DNA of 64,000 nucleotides from a virus, in IMG/VR virus record IMGVR_UViG_3300037309_000121; one strand, given 5' to 3'. How positions within the stretch are numbered: the stretch's first letter is position 1; every line of letters starts with the position of its first letter. The position numbers and the translations under genes are program-made. Shown piece by piece: positions 33,522 through 48,888 of this stretch. The notes beneath the pieces are model-generated. The model made no database searches. It was not told the origin of the DNA and saw only the letters and a list, made by a program, of their open reading frames with translations.

Positions 33522-35084
33522 ATGTATAGTTCTGGCGTGGAAGAAGTCGACCTCTCCCAGTTCAAGACAGCGCCGTTCGAGCACCAGCTGCGAGAGTGGC
33601 TCACCAGCCGCTCTATGCACTCGCGGGCCGTGTTCTGGGAGCAGGGGACTGGGAAGACCTGGCTGGCGATCAACACCGCAGCTTCGCTCTTCCGAGAAGG
33701 AAAGATAGACGCAGTCGTCGTCGTGGCACCCAACGGCGTGCATCGCAACTGGGTCACGGAGGAGATACCTCGCCACCTCGCGGACGATGTGTCTTCGAGG
33801 TCCCGAATGTTCTGCTACAGGACGGACAAAGCGACGTCGAAGTGGCACCAGGAGGAGTGCGAGCGGATCCTCAGGCATCAGGGGCTGGCGTGGCTCGCGA
33901 TGTCCTTCGACGCAGTCGTCACCGACCCGATCATGGAACGGGACAAGGACACCGGATCTCGCCGAACTCTCTGGAGGGGCGGGAAGAAGTTCCTGTGGGA
34001 CTTCTTGTCGACTCGGAAGGTGCTGTACATCGTCGACGAGGCTCGGCGCATCAAGAATCCTAAGGCCGACCGGACGAAGGTCGTAGTCAAGAGCGGTCGC
34101 TACGCGCCCTATCGACGAATCCTCAACGGGACGCCCGTCCCCAACGGTCCCTTCGACCTCTTCCCGCAGCTCCAGTTCCTCGACGAGAAGTTCTGGGACC
34201 AGCACGGCGTCGGCCTCTGGACGACCTACAAGTCTTTCTTCGGGCGATTCCAGAAGGCTCAGGTGCGAAACAAGCAGGGCAAGCTCGTTCAGTTCGACCA
34301 GCTCATCGGGTACCAGAACCTCGACATCCTCAACCGCATCGTGGACACGATCGGTACGCGAGTACTGAAGGAGAATGTGCTGGACCTCCCCCCGAAGGTC
34401 TACACTCGCCGCGAGTTCGACCTGACAGACGCCCAGGCGAAGGCGTATAGGGCGATCCGCGACGACTTCATGGTGATGCTGGAGAGCGGGCAGCTCGTGA
34501 CAGCCCCGCTTGCCCTGACCCGGCTCCTGCGGCTGCAGCAGGTTGCCAGCGGCTTCGTCGCTGCGGACGACGGAGAGCCAGCCGTGGACATCGGCAAGGT
34601 CAACCCGAGGCTGGACCTCGTGCTGGAGATCGCCGAAGACCTCCCGCACAAGGCCATCATCTGGACGAAGTTCCGCCGCACCGTCGACAAGCTCGTGGAG
34701 GCCCTGGGCGAAAGAGCCGTCCGCTACGACGGCGCGGTCGACGAGGATGCCCGGGGGCGAGCAGTCGCCGCGTTCAATCGCGGAGATGTGCAGTTCTTCG
34801 TCGCCAACCAGCAGACCGCCTGCGAGGGCCTCACCCTCCTGGGCAACCAGGAGCAGGACTCGCTCGCCTGCAAGACCTCCATAATCGCTGAGCACACCTT
34901 CGACCTGGCAGTTCGCCTGCAACTCGAGGATCGCAACCACCGGATCGGTCAGAAGTTCTCGACAGAATATATCGATGTCTGCGGTGCCGGGACGATTGAC
35001 TACCACATCGTTCGAGCGCTGAGGGAGAAGTTCGACGTCAGCTGCCAGGTGACCGGAGATCGTCTGAAGGATTGGCTTGCCTAG
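33522..35084 (+). CDS. SNF2-family (SF2) helicase
   Basis: EQGTGKT, VDEARRIKN, LNGTP, QLEDRNHRIGQ. Confidence 0.92.
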   Translation: MYSSGVEEVDLSQFKTAPFEHQLREWLTSRSMHSRAVFWEQGTGKTWLAINTAASLFREGKIDAVVVVAPNGVHRNWVTEEIPRHLADDVSSRSRMFCYRTDKATSKWHQEECERILRHQGLAWLAMSFDAVVTDPIMERDKDTGSRRTLWRGGKKFLWDFLSTRKVLYIVDEARRIKNPKADRTKVVVKSGRYAPYRRILNGTPVPNGPFDLFPQLQFLDEKFWDQHGVGLWTTYKSFFGRFQKAQVRNKQGKLVQFDQLIGYQNLDILNRIVDTIGTRVLKENVLDLPPKVYTRREFDLTDAQAKAYRAIRDDFMVMLESGQLVTAPLALTRLLRLQQVASGFVAADDGEPAVDIGKVNPRLDLVLEIAEDLPHKAIIWTKFRRTVDKLVEALGERAVRYDGAVDEDARGRAVAAFNRGDVQFFVANQQTACEGLTLLGNQEQDSLACKTSIIAEHTFDLAVRLQLEDRNHRIGQKFSTEYIDVCGAGTIDYHIVRALREKFDVSCQVTGDRLKDWLA

Positions 35085-35105
35085 CCGTGGATCCTGACAT
35101 ATACT
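35077..35105 (+). promoter_or_regulatory. Sigma70-like promoter
   Basis: TTGCCT-N17-TATACT upstream of 35128. Confidence 0.65.
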
Positions 35106-35127: not shown

Positions 35128-35673
35128 ATGTCGTCGAACCCGTATGCCGCGTTCAAGGACAGTGCTCGCCCAGCAGAGGAGGCGATGACGGCTCTGCGAG
35201 CCATGATCGACCAGGCGAGGGAGAAGGAAGCCGCGATCGAGAGCTTGTCCGCCCAGCTGAAGCTGGAGCAGGAGGCGCTCCGAGACCTGACCTGGACGAA
35301 GATCCCGACGCTCATGGACGAGATGGGCATCGAGGAGATCAAGACGCCAGACGGCATCAAGGTCAAGGTGAAAGAGGAGATCGAAGCTGGCATCAGCACA
35401 GAGCGGCGCTCGCTGGCCCACAAGTGGTTGGAGGAGAACGGCCACGCGGGGCTCATCAAGCGGGAGATCTCGGTCGCGTTCAACCGAGATCAATCCGAAG
35501 AAGCTGCCAAGCTCGTGGGCGAGCTCCAGGGTCGCTTCCCTGGAGTGTCGCAGGACAGCAAGGTTCACCCAGCCACGCTCAAGGCGTGGGTCCGCGAGAT
35601 GCTCGCGAAGGGGAACGAGCTCCCGCTCGACCTGTTCGGCGTCTTCCGGAGGCGTATCGCGAAGATGGATTGA
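35128..35673 (+). CDS. Conserved replication-module hypothetical protein
   Basis: GAGGAG RBS; coiled coil, IPTLMDEMGI, KWLEENGHAGLIKR, VHPATLKAWVRE. Confidence 0.7.
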   Translation: MSSNPYAAFKDSARPAEEAMTALRAMIDQAREKEAAIESLSAQLKLEQEALRDLTWTKIPTLMDEMGIEEIKTPDGIKVKVKEEIEAGISTERRSLAHKWLEENGHAGLIKREISVAFNRDQSEEAAKLVGELQGRFPGVSQDSKVHPATLKAWVREMLAKGNELPLDLFGVFRRRIAKMD

Positions 35674-35677
35674 GTCT

Positions 35678-35755
35678 GCAGGGGTAGCTCAGCGGTAGAG
35701 TAAGTCGCGTCTGAGAAACGTCGACAGGTCGCGGGTTCGAGCCCCGCCCCCTGCT
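35678..35755 (+). tRNA. Non-canonical tRNA-like gene, anticodon GAG, extended anticodon arm, no encoded CCA
   Basis: Acceptor GCAGGGG/CCCCTGC; D arm GCTC-AGCGGTA-GAGT; T arm GCGGG-TTCGAGC-CCCGC; variable AGGTC; loop CT-GAG-AA. Confidence 0.8.
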
Positions 35756-35847
35756 TTGTGAAGAGGTTGCCGGGGCACCTGCCGAAGCTCCGGGGTCTAA
35801 CGTCCGGGTGACTTGAAACTACCGGCGAACTTGAAAGGATCGCGATC

Positions 35848-36687
35848 ATGGCCAAGCAGGACAACCAAACCAAGGATCTGGGCAGCAAGGAAACTGGAGA
35901 GCTCGCGAAGTTCGACTACGGGGAGATGGCAGGCTCCGGATTCGAGAACGTCACGACCAAGGATCTCTCCATCCCGTTCCTGACTGTCCTCCAGGCGCTG
36001 AGCCCGGAAGTTCAGCCGGGGGAAGATCGCGTGCCGAACGCCGAGGCGGGCATGCTCTTCAACACCGTGACTCGCGAGCTCTTCGACCCCAAAGAGGGCA
36101 TCTGCTTCCAGCCGGTCTGCACCCAACACTGCTTCATGGAGTGGCGGCCCCGCAACCAGGGCGGCGGCCTCGTGGGCAAGCACTCCGTTGACAGCGAGGT
36201 GGTGGCGAAGGCCCAGGCTGCCGCGAAGGCCGCGAACGCTGAGTTCGGCAAGCTCAAGACTGCCGCGGGCAACGACCTGATCGAGACTCGCTACATCCTC
36301 GGCTATATCCTCCGAGACCCGAACCAGGAGGATCCGGGCGAGCCGATCATGATCAGCTTCACGTCGACGAAGATGAAGGTCTACAAGAACATCACCACCC
36401 GCCTCTACACCTTCGCCGGTCGTCCTCCGCTCTTCGCGCACCGTCTCCGCATCACGTCGTCGATGGAGGAGAATCCCAAGGGCAAGTTCTACAACTTCAA
36501 GATCGAGCCCTTCTTCGGCTCGATCCAGGAGTCTCTGATCAACCCCGCGAAGGAGTCGACGAGGAAGCTCCTGACCGACGCCTTCGAGCTGAAGCAGTCG
36601 TTCGAGAAGGGCGAGACCAAGGTCAACTACGAAAAGCAGGGCGGTGCCTCCAACAGCTCCGACTCCGGCGAGGAAGTTCCCTTCTGA
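35848..36687 (+). CDS. Single-stranded DNA-binding / annealing protein
   Basis: DLSIPFLTVLQALSPEV, GMLFNTVT, NPKGKFYNFKIE, acidic tail ending EEVPF. Confidence 0.7.
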   Translation: MAKQDNQTKDLGSKETGELAKFDYGEMAGSGFENVTTKDLSIPFLTVLQALSPEVQPGEDRVPNAEAGMLFNTVTRELFDPKEGICFQPVCTQHCFMEWRPRNQGGGLVGKHSVDSEVVAKAQAAAKAANAEFGKLKTAAGNDLIETRYILGYILRDPNQEDPGEPIMISFTSTKMKVYKNITTRLYTFAGRPPLFAHRLRITSSMEENPKGKFYNFKIEPFFGSIQESLINPAKESTRKLLTDAFELKQSFEKGETKVNYEKQGGASNSSDSGEEVPF

Positions 36688-41212: not shown

Positions 41213-41439
41213 GGTGCTACAACGGATGTCCCGACAGCAAGCTGAAGGCGTATCTGGACGAGCAGGCTTCTCTGCGACGGCAGATCGATGCTCTAGGCTA
41301 CCGTGTCACGTGGTTCCCCAGTGGTGAGTTCTATCAAGCGTTCACGAGGAACCTTCAGCCCGTGGGCAAAGAGCACCGCTCGCTCACAGAGGTGCTCGAA
41401 GAAGTGAGGAGTCTGCACAGTGGGAACGCGCAAGTATGA
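41209..41439 (+). CDS. Hypothetical protein
   Basis: GTGA coupling; GGAG RBS. Confidence 0.55.
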   Translation: MRCYNGCPDSKLKAYLDEQASLRRQIDALGYRVTWFPSGEFYQAFTRNLQPVGKEHRSLTEVLEEVRSLHSGNAQV

Positions 41440-42325
41440 CAAGCTGAGCATCGAGGACTTCGGGGCTCACCTGCTCGACAACCTCGACCTTGACCCGATC
41501 TACGTGGCCCTGCACCGTCTGCAGTGCACTGAGGGAGGTTGGGACCTAGCCACGATCTACCGCTGGCTCGTCGCCTACTGGTGCTTCTACCACGCCGGGG
41601 CCGCGTGCTACATCGCCTCCCGACCGCGAGAGGAGTTCTGGGACTGGATGGAGCGGGCGGCTGCGAATCGCGTCGAAGAACCGTGCCCGCTGGGCGGGAA
41701 CGCCGTGAACGGAGGCTGGCCGCGAGGCCACGAGCGCCGCCACTTCCGCGGAGCCCAGGGCTACGCCGCGGTGAAGGAGCTGAAGGCGAAGTACCCGGAG
41801 CCCGAGGACTTCGTCGTCGCCCTGCAGAGAGTCGACGCGGGGACCAGCGTCCCGTTCTCCAAGCTCTCGGAGAAGATCCGGGAGCACCGGAGCTTCGGCC
41901 CCTGGATCGCCTTCAAGGTTGGCGACATGCTGGATCGCGTGCTCGGCAAGCAGGTTGACTTCACCGAGGCCGAGGTGTTCATGTTCGAGGCCCCGCGGGA
42001 AGCCGCCATCCTCCTGTGGCGCACGAAGCAGAACCTCCCGGAAGGTGCGAAGCCGAAGGACGAGACCCAGGTCATCAAGCGGGTCGTGCAGTACCTCGTG
42101 GACTACTTCGCGGGAGCGCCCCACGAGAAGCGAGCGCCACCTTCCTACGACCGGATGGTCGGTCTGCAGGAGATCGAGACGATCCTCTGCAAGTGGAAGA
42201 GCCACATGACGGGCTCGTACCCACTGTGGAACGATATCGACGAGATCAACGCCGGGCTGTCCCTCTGGAGCGAGACGTGTCCGGCAGTCCAAGAATTCCT
42301 CAGGCACATGCCGAAGCGCCGATGA
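41420..42325 (+). CDS. Amino acid:DNA transferase (AADT, aGPT-Pplase2 family)
   Basis: DLDPIY, RWLVAYWCFYHAGAA, WPRGHERRHFRG, FGPWIAFKVGDM, QEIETILCKWKSH; matches recalled M6 gp51 / PaMx11 gp47 type. Confidence 0.88.
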   Translation: MGTRKYDKLSIEDFGAHLLDNLDLDPIYVALHRLQCTEGGWDLATIYRWLVAYWCFYHAGAACYIASRPREEFWDWMERAAANRVEEPCPLGGNAVNGGWPRGHERRHFRGAQGYAAVKELKAKYPEPEDFVVALQRVDAGTSVPFSKLSEKIREHRSFGPWIAFKVGDMLDRVLGKQVDFTEAEVFMFEAPREAAILLWRTKQNLPEGAKPKDETQVIKRVVQYLVDYFAGAPHEKRAPPSYDRMVGLQEIETILCKWKSHMTGSYPLWNDIDEINAGLSLWSETCPAVQEFLRHMPKRR

Positions 42326-42522: not shown

Positions 42523-42626
42523 GAAGTCGCAAGCTCTACCAGTTCCTGGTCGGATTCTTCGAAGGTCTTTTCGTCGGATTCGTCGTCGGCCTGTCCATCG
42601 TGATCTTCTTCCTGGAGGTCCTGTGA
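42519..42626 (+). CDS. 35-aa single-TM membrane peptide
   Basis: RSRKLYQFLVGFFEGLFVGFVVGLSIVIFFLEVL; GTGA coupled both sides. Confidence 0.5.
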   Translation: MRSRKLYQFLVGFFEGLFVGFVVGLSIVIFFLEVL

Positions 42627-43483
42627 ACACCATCAACGTCGTCGGTGCAGGCATCGCCGGATCTTTGGTCGCTCGCGTCCTCCGCGCTCGCGGGCACACG
42701 GTTCGGGTCATCGACGACTGCGACGTCAACTCCGCGAGCCGTGCCAGCAGCAACTTGTACATCGGGAGCTGGCTGAAGAAGTTCGGCAGCCCCGCAGCGT
42801 CGAACGGCATCCGCGTCGTCGAGGAGCTCTTCGCCGGGAAGATCGACCAGCCTTTCAGTCGCGGGATCGCCGACGCCGCTAGGGTGCGGCACATCGCCCA
42901 GCGGCACCTGCTCGTCGATCCCGATGTGGTCGGCACCGCTACCTCAGTTCACCAGGTTGACGACCCGTTTCCCCCGAACTACGGGGGTGGAGTCAAGGTG
43001 TCTGTGCTCGGAGGTAGGTTCTTCCCCGGACGAACCGTCATCTGCACCGGCTATCGAGGTGCGGAGCTCGTTCCCGGCCTGAAGGTCGACGTCAAGGTCG
43101 GCCACGGCATCCACTTCCGCGGCCGCCTGCCGGAGGGGAAGAGCTCGCTCACGCTGGCCTCTCCCTACACGCACGCGAAGCTCTACCAGCTCGACGAGGA
43201 CACGATCTACTTCGCAGACTCCGTCGCCGTGACCCGAGGTACCTACGACAAGCGGAGGAAGGAACTCATGGACCGCACCATGGCCCGCGCGGTCAAGCTG
43301 ATCGGGTTCGAGCCCGAGGTGAAGTCCATCCTCGTCGGCTACCGGCCGTTCGTCTCCGGACACGACTTCGGTTACCTCGCGCAGGTGAAGCCGGGCGTGT
43401 GGGTGCTGAACGGGGGTGGGAAGAACGGCATCGTGGCCTACGCCGACGCGGCAGATCGGCTCGCGAAGGAGATCGGGTCGTGA
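42623..43483 (+). CDS. FAD-dependent oxidoreductase (glycine/D-amino-acid oxidase-like)
   Basis: VVGAGIAG Rossmann motif, SRASS, GYRP, NGGGKNGI. Confidence 0.85.
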   Translation: MNTINVVGAGIAGSLVARVLRARGHTVRVIDDCDVNSASRASSNLYIGSWLKKFGSPAASNGIRVVEELFAGKIDQPFSRGIADAARVRHIAQRHLLVDPDVVGTATSVHQVDDPFPPNYGGGVKVSVLGGRFFPGRTVICTGYRGAELVPGLKVDVKVGHGIHFRGRLPEGKSSLTLASPYTHAKLYQLDEDTIYFADSVAVTRGTYDKRRKELMDRTMARAVKLIGFEPEVKSILVGYRPFVSGHDFGYLAQVKPGVWVLNGGGKNGIVAYADAADRLAKEIGS

Positions 43484-44807: not shown

Positions 44808-44950
44808 GAACTTGCCCAGACAGGCTGTGTGTTGGCTATTCTTTCTGGCCTCATCCGCTGGTGTGGTGGTGGCGCGGTTGGAGACGCTGGCCACTTTGTC
44901 GGGCTTGTCGCTTCTGCGGCAGGCAAACTGTTCGGAGGTTCAACCCATGA
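44804..44950 (+). CDS. 48-aa Trp/Cys/Arg-rich micro-ORF (below ORF-track threshold)
   Basis: GTGA overlap with GNAT stop and ATGA overlap with kinase start; RTCPDRLCVGYSFWPHPLVWWWRGWRRWPLCRACRFCGRQTVRRFNP. Confidence 0.5.
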   Translation: MRTCPDRLCVGYSFWPHPLVWWWRGWRRWPLCRACRFCGRQTVRRFNP

Positions 44951-45627
44951 TCATCAACATCCGAGGCACGTCCGGCTCCGGGAAGACAACGCTTGTGCGC
45001 AAGGTCTTCGACCATCTGCAGGCTGGGAACCACACGAAGACTGAGTGGCACCTCGACGAGCAGGACTGGAGCCACCCCCTGCTCGCTGGGCTCCGACCAG
45101 AGCGCGAGCGCAAGCGCCCGTGGGGGTACGTCCTCGAGAACCGCGAGAGAAGGGCGAACGTCGTCGTGCTCGGCTCCTACGAGAGCGAGTGTGGAGGCTG
45201 CGACTCCATCTCGGGCCTCGACCTCATGTACGGCCTGGCGAGGCTCGCGCACGAGCGGCGATACCACGTCATCTTCGAGGGCCTCATCATCAACTCCGAC
45301 TTCAAGCGAGCGGCCCAGCTCGCGACGGACCAGATCCCGCACCTGCTCATCTACCTGAGTACCCCGCTGGAGCAGTGCATCCAGTCGGTCGAGCACCGGA
45401 GGAACCAGTCCAAGCGGGCCGAAAAGTTCCGCGCCGCTGGCGGGGAAATGCCTGCATTCAACCCGGCGAACACGCGGGCGAAGTACGACCTCAACCTCAA
45501 GATGATCGATCGCATGCGTGCGGCAGGAGTGAGCTGCCTGAGCCTCGCTCGCGACGAGGCGTTCCTCGAGATCTCGAAGCTCCTCGCCGAGCCCTGGACG
45601 GAGAAGTCGGGAAAGGTTCCGCAGTGA
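44947..45627 (+). CDS. P-loop nucleotide kinase associated with 5-hmdU modification
   Basis: INIRGTSGSGKTT; LGSYESECGGCDSI; VIFEG. Confidence 0.8.
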   Translation: MIINIRGTSGSGKTTLVRKVFDHLQAGNHTKTEWHLDEQDWSHPLLAGLRPERERKRPWGYVLENRERRANVVVLGSYESECGGCDSISGLDLMYGLARLAHERRYHVIFEGLIINSDFKRAAQLATDQIPHLLIYLSTPLEQCIQSVEHRRNQSKRAEKFRAAGGEMPAFNPANTRAKYDLNLKMIDRMRAAGVSCLSLARDEAFLEISKLLAEPWTEKSGKVPQ

Positions 45628-47006: not shown

Positions 47007-47387
47007 GTGCCGCAGCGCCCGCCAGCGTACCTGCCGCCCGTCACCGACGACAAGGTCGTCGCGAGGTTCACCTCGCGCCTGTCCATGCCGGGGAACGACG
47101 CCTGCTGGTTCTGGTGGGGGCACGTCTCGGAGAAGGGCTACGGGCAGTTCTGGATGAGTGGCCGCGCCCACTGGGCGCACCGAGTTGCTTATGCGATCTG
47201 GGTCGGGGAGATCCCTGCGGGCATGACCCCCGACCACACGTGCGGGCGAGCTTCGTGCGTCAATCCGCACCACCTCACGCTTGTCACAATCTCCGAGAAC
47301 TCGAGCAATCGCTGGAAGAGGCAACGCGAGGGTTGCCCTAGCAGGGACGAGAGCTATACTCCCGAACAAGGAAACTCAACATGCTGA
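47007..47387 (+). CDS. HNH endonuclease
   Basis: CWFWWG, GYGQF, AHRVAY, PDHTCGRASCVNPHHL. Confidence 0.88.
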   Translation: MPQRPPAYLPPVTDDKVVARFTSRLSMPGNDACWFWWGHVSEKGYGQFWMSGRAHWAHRVAYAIWVGEIPAGMTPDHTCGRASCVNPHHLTLVTISENSSNRWKRQREGCPSRDESYTPEQGNSTC

Positions 47388-48418
47388 CGATCAAGGCCCG
47401 CAACGTACACCAGGCACTCCCAGAGATGATGCACCAGCTCCGCGCCAACGGAGTGCGCAGGGAGAGCCGCAACGGCTCGGTTCTGGTCTTTCCCTACCCT
47501 GTCGTGGTCGAGTACGCTCGACCCCAGGAGAGGGTCATGTACTGGCGCGAGCGGGACTGCAACCCGTTCTTCCACTTCTTCGAGGCGCTCTGGATGCTGG
47601 GGGGCCGCCGAGACGTAGCCTTCCCCTCGCGGTTCAACAGCACCTTCGGGCAGTTCAGCGACGACGGCGTCGTCTTCAACGGAGCCTACGGGTACCGGTG
47701 GCACGACCACTTCGGCCACAACCAGCTCGAGATCGTCGCCCAGCGGCTGAGGGCGAATCCCGACGACCGGCGAGTCGTCCTCGGGATGTGGGATCCTCGG
47801 GAGGATCTCGGCTCTTCCAGCAAGGACGTGCCGTGCAACCTAAGTGCCTGCTTCCAGCGGGGCGCTGACGGCGAGCTGAACATGACGGTCTACAACCGCT
47901 CCAACGACATCGTCTGGGGCGCGCTCGGGGCGAACGCGGTGCACTTCAGCGTGCTCCAGGAGTTCCTGGCGCTCGCCATCGGGTGCCCCGTCGGACGGTA
48001 CTGGCAGATCTCCTGCAACATGCACGGATACCTGAAGACGATCGAACCTCTCCTGTCGCTGTCGGACAAGTCCTTCCCCTCGAGGTATGCGCAACTCACG
48101 GACCCCTACGAGCAGGGCGACGTCCAGCCGCTCGAGATGTTCCCCTCCGGCACTGGAGGAGACTTCGTCAGCGACCTCGCGATGTTCCTCGACGAGGGCG
48201 AGCGGGCGATGGGGTACAAGACGAAGTTCATGCGCCGCGTCGCGATGCCGATGCTGCGGTCGTGGCTCGCGTTCAAGGACAGCAGCAACCCTACTAGGTT
48301 CGAGGAGGCGATGCGCATCGTGAACGACTGCCAGGCTACAGACTGGAGGCTCGCCTGCGGCCAGTGGCTCTCCGTCCGTCAGCAGAAGGCAGCTGCGAAA
48401 GCAGTCCAAGAGGAGTGA
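47381..48418 (+). CDS. Thymidylate synthase homologue, probable dUMP hydroxymethylase
   Basis: NPFFHFFEALWML, DVPCN catalytic Cys, RSND..WGA.GAN with Asn at the dUMP-specificity position; context of hmdU-modifying genes. Confidence 0.88.
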   Translation: MLTIKARNVHQALPEMMHQLRANGVRRESRNGSVLVFPYPVVVEYARPQERVMYWRERDCNPFFHFFEALWMLGGRRDVAFPSRFNSTFGQFSDDGVVFNGAYGYRWHDHFGHNQLEIVAQRLRANPDDRRVVLGMWDPREDLGSSSKDVPCNLSACFQRGADGELNMTVYNRSNDIVWGALGANAVHFSVLQEFLALAIGCPVGRYWQISCNMHGYLKTIEPLLSLSDKSFPSRYAQLTDPYEQGDVQPLEMFPSGTGGDFVSDLAMFLDEGERAMGYKTKFMRRVAMPMLRSWLAFKDSSNPTRFEEAMRIVNDCQATDWRLACGQWLSVRQQKAAAKAVQEE

Positions 48419-48420
48419 GC

Positions 48421-48888
48421 ATGTCCCAGAACATCTACCTGATCTGTCCCGTCCGCCGCTGCACTCCGGAGGTGAGAGCGGTCATGGACGCCTACGTCGC
48501 TGGCCTGGAGGCCAGGGGACACAAGGTGCACTACCCTCCTCGCGACGTCGACCAGAGCAACGACGACGGCGGAGTTAGGATCTGCCAGGAGCACCTGCAC
48601 GCCATGCTCGCTTGCGACGCGGTGCACGTGTGGTGGGATCCCGCGAGCACCGGCTCGCACTTCGATCTCGGGATGGCCTACGCGATGCATGCTATCCGAC
48701 TCGTGCTACACCTGAAACTGGGCGTGAGCGGGTTGAAGGAACTCGACCAGAAGCACGGCATCGACGTGGGACCTATCCCGCAATTCTTCATCGCCAACCA
48801 CGACCAGGTCAAGACCGATCCGGAGAAGTCATTCACAAATGTTTTGCTGAGCATGGCGGAAATGCCGAGGGTAGTGACCCATGACTGA
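48421..48888 (+). CDS. Nucleoside 2-deoxyribosyltransferase-like protein
   Basis: IYLICPVR, VHYPPRD, AMLACDAVHVWWD, STGSHFDLGMAYA. Confidence 0.7.
   Translation: MSQNIYLICPVRRCTPEVRAVMDAYVAGLEARGHKVHYPPRDVDQSNDDGGVRICQEHLHAMLACDAVHVWWDPASTGSHFDLGMAYAMHAIRLVLHLKLGVSGLKELDQKHGIDVGPIPQFFIANHDQVKTDPEKSFTNVLLSMAEMPRVVTHD

Follow-up and report, generated by a model that had tools for sequence, protein, structure and literature searches.

Phage-encoded tRNA look-alikes that are unable to decode have been known since T4 and T5, and gene finders label them as tRNAs with an arbitrary anticodon, which at the locus described here is 'Leu(GAG)'. The species 1 and species 2 stable RNAs of T4 (rnaC and rnaD) are small, have tRNA-like ends, and are co-transcribed and processed with tRNAs. 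tRNA-like folds also lie within transcripts, as in the C4 antisense RNA of P1 and P7, the mascRNA of MALAT1 and the tRNA-linked RNAs of murine gammaherpesvirus 68, where they act as RNase P and RNase Z cut signals that free a small RNA and define mRNA ends. Engineered tRNA scaffolds are processed and kept stable like a tRNA. In those made by the approach of Ponchon and Dardel a foreign hairpin replaces the anticodon arm and, according to PMC3753655 and PMC3401473, such a hairpin-bearing tRNA body is expressed efficiently in E. coli. RNA1, RNA2 and RNA3 of T5 are recorded in RefSeq NC_005859 (T5s03, T5s06 and T5s07) as 'tRNA-like stable RNA with unknown functions'; they are phage-encoded and combine a tRNA-type acceptor and T arm with an expanded structure in the position of the anticodon arm. 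The fold of RNA2, for instance, comprises an 8-bp acceptor, a D-like arm, a long branched arm and a T arm with the parts GCAGG/TTCGAAT/CCTGT. A further group is formed by the tRNA genes of Lak megaphages, in which conserved, unexplained inserts in the anticodon region have been described as 'enigmatic introns' (Devoto et al. 2019, PMC6784885). Functional tRNAs have an anticodon stem of 5 bp, with a maximum of 6 bp in the tRNAs for Sec and Pyl and in mitochondrial tRNA-Ser; some of these stems longer than 5 bp have an unpaired base, and compensation is provided by a 1-nt linker between acceptor and D stem, by a D loop of reduced size and by a variable loop of 3 nt (PMC7609411). In the literature we found no paper that gives a function to the non-decoding phage tRNA-like RNAs as a class.

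Below, we describe a tRNA-like gene of a phage related to the YuA/M6 group. With moderate confidence we favour the reading that it specifies a functional, non-decoding tRNA-like RNA, made up of a conserved chassis (acceptor stem, D arm and T arm, and hence the elbow) and an over-long, exchangeable anticodon arm.

The locus and its cloverleaf

The window, by which we mean the whole 64-kb stretch of DNA that was analysed, derives from a YuA/M6-like siphophage and, on the evidence of Pfam and PHROG scans, resembles a whole genome. The same scans recognize terminase, portal, capsid, tail tube, tape measure and tail proteins; other genes encode a 'DNA transfer' protein, a PD-(D/E)XK exonuclease, an SNF2 helicase, a Dda-like helicase, a ribonucleotide reductase, a DNA methylase, a primase-helicase-like protein and DNA polymerase A. 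The nearest named phages are those of the Pseudomonas M6/YuA group, with a gp34 identity of only ~41%. A nucleotide search of 50,697 phage records with the region gave no near match, and a more distant search returned only generic pieces of tRNA. There is, in addition, a gene set of the thymidine-hypermodification type (window 41420-42325, 42623-43483, 44812-45627, 47381-48418 and 48364-48888), which encodes an amino acid:DNA transferase (PF18724, 8e-25), an FAD oxidoreductase fragment, a P-loop kinase-like protein, and thymidylate-synthase-like and nucleoside 2-deoxyribosyltransferase-like proteins. As in phages of the M6/YuA group, a modified base is probably present in the DNA of this phage.

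The tRNA-like gene (Table 1) lies between two genes with relatives in phage Pam3. The stop codon of the upstream DUF7307 gene ends 4 nt before it, and the ATG of the gp34-like gene starts 93 nt past its end. Homologues of the gp34-like protein are labelled as ssDNA-binding proteins in some phage records; the protein ends in an acidic tail, ...SGEEVPF (36673-36687), which is kept in relatives and resembles the partner-binding tip of bacterial SSB. The only promoter match precedes the gp33-like gene, and no terminator-like site was found between this match and the genes 3' of the tRNA-like gene; the simplest assumption is therefore that the latter is transcribed together with the replication genes. 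The stretch that separates the tRNA-like gene from the gp34-like start codon is likely to serve as a leader or regulatory element. Within this spacer there is a hairpin (35770-35776 with 35787-35793), recognized by eye and distinct from the minimum free energy (MFE) structure, whose pairing survives a change of G-C to G-U. Two CTTGAAA repeats stand directly 5' of the start codon. Inspection of the spacer by eye for a sigma-54-like site and for an antisense target gave no match.

Table 1. Features of the tRNA-like gene and of its surroundings (positions in the window)
Feature	Position	Strand	Basis
sigma-70-like promoter, only match upstream on the + strand	35077..35105	+	consensus match only
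DUF7307 / Pam3 gp33-like gene	35128..35673	+	Pfam PF23984 1.3e-30; PHROG 2378
tRNA-like gene, 78 nt, no encoded CCA	35678..35755	+	ARAGORN, Rfam, MFE, strict cloverleaf scanner
acceptor 5' strand GCAGGGG, pairs with 35748-35754	35678..35684	+	sequence, MFE
D arm: GCTC/GAGT (one G-U pair), loop AGCGGTA with G18 G19 doublet	35687..35701	+	sequence, Rfam, MFE
elongated anticodon arm, A/A opposition 35703/35726	35703..35726	+	sequence, MFE
anticodon-arm stem, bulged T 35721	35704-35710 with 35718-35720 and 35722-35725	+	sequence, MFE
anticodon-arm loop CTGAGAA; 'anticodon' GAG at 35713-35715	35711-35717	+	sequence, MFE
variable region GGTC, class-I type	35727..35730	+	sequence, Rfam
T arm: GCGGG/CCCGC, loop TTCGAGC	35731..35747	+	Rfam, MFE
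acceptor 3' strand CCCCTGC and discriminator T (35755)	35748..35755	+	sequence, MFE
conserved spacer / 5' leader of gp34-like gene	35756..35847	+	81/90 identical to type B
Pam3 gp34-like gene	35848..36687	+	Pfam PF23977 1.2e-53; PHROG 2402

ARAGORN makes a single tRNA call in the 64 kb, on the + strand at 35678-35755, and names it Leu(gag), with the anticodon at position 36. The Rfam tRNA model (RF00005) matches the gene over model positions 1-71 with 46.7 bits (gathering threshold 29, E 8e-7), placing 14 nt where 7 are expected at the anticodon loop; the Rfam scan found no family besides tRNA, and in particular neither C4 nor any intron family. The MFE structure given by RNAfold (-32.4 kcal/mol) is a cloverleaf, as is the centroid structure, with an acceptor of 7 bp, a D stem of 4 bp, an anticodon stem of 4+3 bp and a T stem of 5 bp. 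A strict cloverleaf scanner also recovers the gene. The initial annotation, made by inspection of the letters, had described textbook acceptor, D and T arms, and these methods bear it out: the 7-bp acceptor, the D arm with its GG, and the 5-bp T stem with a TTCRA loop are those of a canonical tRNA. Its 7-bp anticodon arm with a bulged T at 35721 (strands GTCG-CGT / ACG-T-CGAC) corresponds exactly to the MFE cloverleaf, in which the bulged U and the 7-nt loop CUGAGAA both appear, the latter as proposed (CT-GAG-AA). The extra A that it placed at 35703 is opposed by A35726; the gene has 78 nt where this body would have ~71-72 if its stem were of 5 bp, so that the excess is 6-7 nt, close to the six or so that had been estimated. 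The variable region, given there as 5 nt, has this length if A35726 is left outside the arm and is 4 nt (GGTC) if that base is counted within it. The discriminator is T, as claimed, and is followed by TTGTG, so that CCA is not encoded. The linker between acceptor and D stem is TA, that between the D arm and the anticodon arm is AA (35702-35703), and the base at position -1 (35677) is T, i.e. U in the RNA.

Where a canonical tRNA has an anticodon stem of 5 bp, or 6 bp in the exceptions, this gene has 7 bp, a bulged U and an A/A layer. Given the 6-bp maximum, its anticodon helix extends two to three layers beyond that of any known functional tRNA. Its identity is equally at odds with the name that it received. 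Bacterial tRNA-Leu has, in keeping with the determinants of LeuRS, a class-II long variable arm and A73, and the CUN readers have G37, as does the typical bacterial tRNA-Leu(GAG) loop. Here the variable region is 4-5 nt long, the discriminator (35755) is T and position 37 (35716) is A; thus the view that this is not an ordinary leucine tRNA holds on four counts, namely a class-I body, U73 in place of A73, A37 in place of G37, and the over-long anticodon helix. A working decoder that reads CUC, charged with leucine or with another amino acid in spite of the long arm, is accordingly very improbable. The form of the loop, C32-U33-GAG-A37-A38, is canonical and speaks for it, as does the fact that 6-bp anticodon stems, some of them bulged, work in tRNA-Pyl (PMC7609411). 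Against it stand the length of the helix (7 bp with a bulge and an extra A/A layer), the conflict of U73 and the short variable region with bacterial Leu identity, and the observation that, with a stem made of the outer 4-5 pairs, a loop with U33 is never obtained by deleting 7 contiguous nt from the 14-nt region. The last point means that a single-block intron offers no way out either. The orthologues, described below, also count against a working decoder.

The folding energies are less distinctive. The whole molecule has a z of -1.97, and the anticodon arm a z of -1.16, with 25 of 200 shuffles folding equally well; the case for a real feature thus rests on the covariance-model score and on the relatives. 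That the arm is no stabler than shuffled sequence, and that its loop looks like that of a textbook tRNA (C32 U33 ... A37), both count against the non-decoding reading, and the second could mean that the copy in the window still decodes or did so recently.

Conservation of the body and replacement of the arm

Relatives were sought with the gp34-like protein, whose homologues (P0002-P0018) range from 48 to 83% identity on contigs of up to 83 kb; it is among these that additional versions of the arm would most probably turn up. The close relatives compared here, with 82-83% protein identity, are on three IMG/VR and two metagenome contigs, and all five have a tRNA-like gene at the same place, 89 nt in length and scoring 47.9-48.0 bits with the Rfam tRNA model. 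Three of these loci are identical over 3.8 kb (here termed type B), and another, L001, shares 96.2% identity with this group; three independent genomes are therefore counted, namely the window, type B and L001. In an alignment of the window with type B there is no difference in the 5' strands of the acceptor and of the D stem, a few changes are seen in the T arm and in the 3' acceptor strand, and the downstream spacer is nearly unchanged, whereas the whole anticodon arm is different. One T-stem pair, the second, is C-G in the window and G-U in type B, both sides having changed.

The type B arm reads CTGC-TGT-CCAGGGG-CCACCG-CCCCTGG-TT-GCGG, 33 nt as compared with 24 nt in the window. It is predicted to fold into a 4-bp base, a 3x2 internal loop, a G+C-rich helix of 7-8 bp and an apical loop of 4-6 nt (z -3.4; none of 200 shuffles was as good), and it contains no 7-nt anticodon loop. 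Thus, relatives with a normal 5-bp arm, which would have pointed to local duplication or decay in the window, are not what the sister phages have: their arm at the syntenic position is even longer. The two arms share no similarity beyond chance (992 of 1000 shuffles align equally well), but each is an end-closed hairpin that extends the anticodon stem. Between L001 and L003 the arm differs by two substitutions, A-U to G-U and G-C to G-U, and both keep the pairing, which fits an RNA helix formed from the + strand.

The orthologues also bear on decoding. A 7-nt loop with a constant anticodon is absent from them, the loops of L001, L002, L003 and L010 being of 4-6 nt, and the 'anticodon' that ARAGORN reads in sister genomes that are 96% identical is CCA in one case and none in the other. 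Because the orthologues are devoid of an anticodon loop, the conserved function of this gene is not to decode CUC; the proposal in the initial annotation of a mis-charging or recoding tRNA for CUC is disfavoured on the same grounds, and both observations also weigh against the working decoder considered above.

It is possible to compare the rates of change directly. When the window is compared with type B, the body minus its arm is identical at 46 of 54 positions (85%) and the spacer at 81 of 90 (90%), the latter above coding DNA; the gp34 gene is 83% identical and its protein 82%. At the third positions of conserved four-fold-family codons in gp34 the identity is 66/119 (55.5%), from which body and spacer differ with Fisher p values of 1.3e-4 and 2.4e-8, respectively, in a comparison that presumes near-neutral third positions in a genome with a GC3 of 88%. 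The contrast of the body with all third positions is weaker (p 0.014). Since the body is conserved while the arm is unrelated, selection acts on the body, whereas the arm can be swapped. The exchange probably came about by recombination within the near-universal sequences of the D arm and of the variable region and T arm.

These figures have to be set against the alternative that the gene is a decaying pseudogene, that is, a former phage tRNA that has suffered indels in its anticodon arm and is now functionless. Real tRNAs do land beside the gp34-like gene, as is evident from a related phage in which an ordinary tRNA-Arg(UCU) occupies the neighbouring slot, directly downstream (L202:2357-2434 (+), 45% gp34 identity; canonical, 58.3 bits, with encoded CCA). 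An A/A mismatch in the acceptor stem of type B and the unremarkable energy of the window arm would also suit decay. We nevertheless regard a pseudogene as unlikely: the conservation of the body above that of third positions (85% versus 55% in four-fold families) argues against it, all four arms are intact in both versions, the replaced segment is each time a clean hairpin and not a scrambled stem, and one T-stem pair is altered on both sides. Support from covariation is thin, as the syntenic gene is available from three independent genomes only. Among six genes that share the 5' half of the window gene, the acceptor and T stems are 95.8% paired, as against 57-67% when the partners are slid, and two T-stem pairs change on both sides; the 5' strand of these genes was fixed by the search pattern and so carries no weight.

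tRNA-like genes elsewhere in viral contigs

Further loci were examined with the strict cloverleaf scanner, which replaced a relaxed ARAGORN search that had given many false calls inside coding regions. At some 120 more distant gp34 loci (30-56% identity) there is usually nothing tRNA-like beside the gene, and the M6/YuA phages, M6 among them, have at this place a 142-nt spacer with no tRNA-like fold. Nonetheless, the slot adjacent to gp34 is a recurrent landing place for tRNA-like genes. Besides the tRNA-Arg(UCU) mentioned above, L028 has a long-armed tRNA-like gene of 90 nt (Rfam 30.4 bits) just downstream of its gp34-like gene, and weaker candidates are found in L203, L232 and L242. A two-piece (circularly permuted) tmRNA is encoded at L211:926-1296 (+), just upstream of a gp34-like gene at 1501; it scores 124.5 bits with tmRNA_permuted and 93.5 bits with beta_tmRNA, and ARAGORN gives its tag peptide as ANDDNFGFDEADLPLAA. 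Its beta type hints at a betaproteobacterial host range for the phage group, and together with the source of L010 it suggests a betaproteobacterium of activated sludge as host.

The 5' half GCAGGGGTAGCTCAG together with an elongated arm is also found away from gp34, in L008, L009 and L185. The first of these is an unrelated early region of temperate type that has the same 5' half. The second (L009:281-14003) is a G+C-rich phage contig with ~35 tRNA genes, of which those examined have an encoded CCA; several have over-long or loop-less anticodon arms, in one (476-561) the arm is built from a 4-bp stem, then an internal loop, and then a GCGC/GCGC helix closed by a triloop, and another (601-682) has the same acceptor as the window gene. 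The third, L185:6888-6973, is on a contig of a Paceibacterota MAG (DATEYD010000026.1) and directly follows another tRNA gene; it has the acceptor GCAGGGG, discriminator T and a long, interrupted anticodon arm. The design may thus extend to a CPR bacterium, unless the contig comes from a phage and was binned with it.

A pattern search of IMG/VR for class-I-type bodies in which the D and T arms are separated by 6-35 nt more than usual returned at least 120 loci. Among the matches listed (L065-L184), at least 97 have a compatible acceptor stem and T arm; one long hairpin fills the middle region in 77 of these 97, and the beginning of a normal loop, Y32-U33...R37, is kept in 19. Such counts indicate that insert-bearing tRNA look-alikes are common in viral contigs. 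The loci that keep the loop start often have GUU, GUA or GUG (Asn, Tyr and His, the queuosine family) and resemble the tRNA 'introns' of huge phages. Five genes of 98-101 nt on different contigs (L066, L099, L166, L170 and L171) share an expanded-arm motif near CATGGTGAAGGACCAAA and may be a distinct conserved sub-family. Two 96-nt tRNA-like genes, L141:1120-1215 (+) and L146:4453-4548 (-), have in common a 7-bp base helix and a UYAAGG loop, while most positions of the 8-bp upper helix differ and are fully compensated; this pair clearly exemplifies selection on a hairpin that is carried by a tRNA scaffold.

It might be supposed that the window gene is an interrupted tRNA gene, its extra nucleotides being a short intron removed after transcription in the manner of the 'enigmatic introns' of huge phages. 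Phage tRNAs with unexplained inserts are indeed on record (Devoto 2019, PMC6784885), the 19 of 97 listed IMG/VR genes that keep Y32-U33...R37 after a 5-nt stem strand exceed the ~6% expected by chance, and with an insert allowed, ARAGORN readings as Trp(CCA) for type B and as Pro(UGG) for L028 are possible. The structures fit poorly, however. In the window the extra bases are on both sides of the loop (3 nt 5' and 4 nt 3') and do not form one block; there is no bulge-helix-bulge of the kind that flanks the single insert, usually at 37/38, of archaeal and eukaryal tRNA introns, the strands of the 3x2 internal loop of type B being directly opposed; inserts of 7-18 nt are far below the size of group I introns (core at least 200 nt), and Rfam finds none; and the arm substitution in L001 would turn the 'anticodon' CCA into CCG. 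An intron is thus very improbable.

A further alternative is that the RNA acts as bait or decoy, or that it presents a cargo hairpin on a tRNA scaffold, and that it titrates a host factor which binds or cuts tRNA, the arm being swapped in an arms race. The constant chassis, with an arm that is wholesale different between phages 82% identical in gp34 protein, would be expected on such a scheme, and the scaffolded hairpins of L141 and L146, with their conserved loop and fully covarying stems, provide viral examples. Engineered tRNA scaffolds, moreover, stabilise inserted hairpins in E. coli (PMC3753655 and PMC3401473). We nevertheless consider this alternative rather unlikely. Among ~40 window ORFs scanned with Pfam and PHROG there is no RNA ligase, kinase-phosphatase, CCA-adding enzyme, aminoacyl-tRNA synthetase or Ro60-like partner, and hence no candidate partner gene nearby. 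Exact IMG/VR searches with the window arm and the type B arm brought up nothing new, and neither was found on another chassis; copies and complements of the arm within the window are at chance level, with none involving nearby mRNA; and the window loop, with A37, is not a copy of the typical bacterial tRNA-Leu(GAG) loop.

Possible processing and role, and known counterparts

Returning to the favoured reading of a non-decoding tRNA-like RNA, we infer its transcription, processing and stability, and a role for the released RNA, along the following lines. The gene would be transcribed within the replication-gene operon, and host RNase P would cut the transcript at 35677/35678, 4 nt past the upstream stop codon. 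A 3' tRNA-processing nuclease would cut after 35755, and the host CCA-adding enzyme would finish the end. Together, the two cuts would part the gp33-like from the gp34-like mRNA and free a stable, tRNA-shaped RNA. The long arm would move the loop by about three helical layers, such that the RNA could not decode on the ribosome, while proteins that recognize the top half or the elbow of a tRNA could still bind it.

As to the role of the released RNA, we tentatively put forward processing punctuation, with the RNA as a by-product. A possible but doubtful role is to lure a host factor that binds tRNA, as bait or decoy, or to display a hairpin as cargo. Two roles named in the initial annotation, as a decoy against tRNA-directed defences or as a regulatory RNA within the replication operon, are both possible. 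It is also conceivable, though rather unlikely, that the gene is a modular device in which the tRNA chassis provides excision and stability and the exchangeable arm is a rapidly swapped cargo that would bait a factor of host tRNA-directed immunity or tune expression of the neighbouring replication genes. A device of this kind would explain why closely related phages have unrelated arms on a body under purifying selection, and would make the insert-bearing viral tRNA-like genes one functional class and not annotation noise.

The present case has the merit of simplicity: one 78-nt gene in a mid-sized phage, between two replication genes, for which a sister phage supplies a natural partner with a swapped arm. 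The genes of the window and of type B form a handy pair with which a processing signal, a decoy and a carrier of a functional hairpin could be told apart. It should be noted that the window gene is not to be counted as compensation for CUC codon usage.

It remains to place this RNA among the systems described at the outset. Engineered scaffolds are man-made and can be likened to it by design logic only; on that analogy they show that the architecture is workable. The Lak inserts keep the anticodon and are one block beside it, whereas in the window the stem is extended on both sides and the orthologues have no anticodon loop. Nor is the RNA like the tRNAs with a 6-bp stem, as it has 7 bp with a bulge and an A/A layer, a normal 2-nt linker and a normal D loop. 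It is unlike C4 RNA in that it has no match to the Rfam C4 family and its arm has no complementarity to nearby mRNA. The T4 species 1 and 2 RNAs are larger, are encoded in the T4 tRNA cluster and are without a full cloverleaf. The T5 RNAs differ in being 73-144 nt in length and encoded in a tRNA gene cluster, and none of them reaches the Rfam tRNA model at E<0.01; the window RNA is 78 nt, scores 46.7 bits as a tRNA, and is the sole tRNA-like gene of its phage, inside a replication operon. The likeness to T5 RNA1, RNA2 and RNA3, for which Rfam has no family, is one of design and consists in a phage-encoded RNA that has the acceptor and T arm of a tRNA and a non-decoding structure in place of the anticodon arm. 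On our best reading, therefore, the window gene belongs with the long-known tRNA-like RNAs of phages, of the kind represented by T5 RNA1 and RNA2, and not with the leucine tRNAs.
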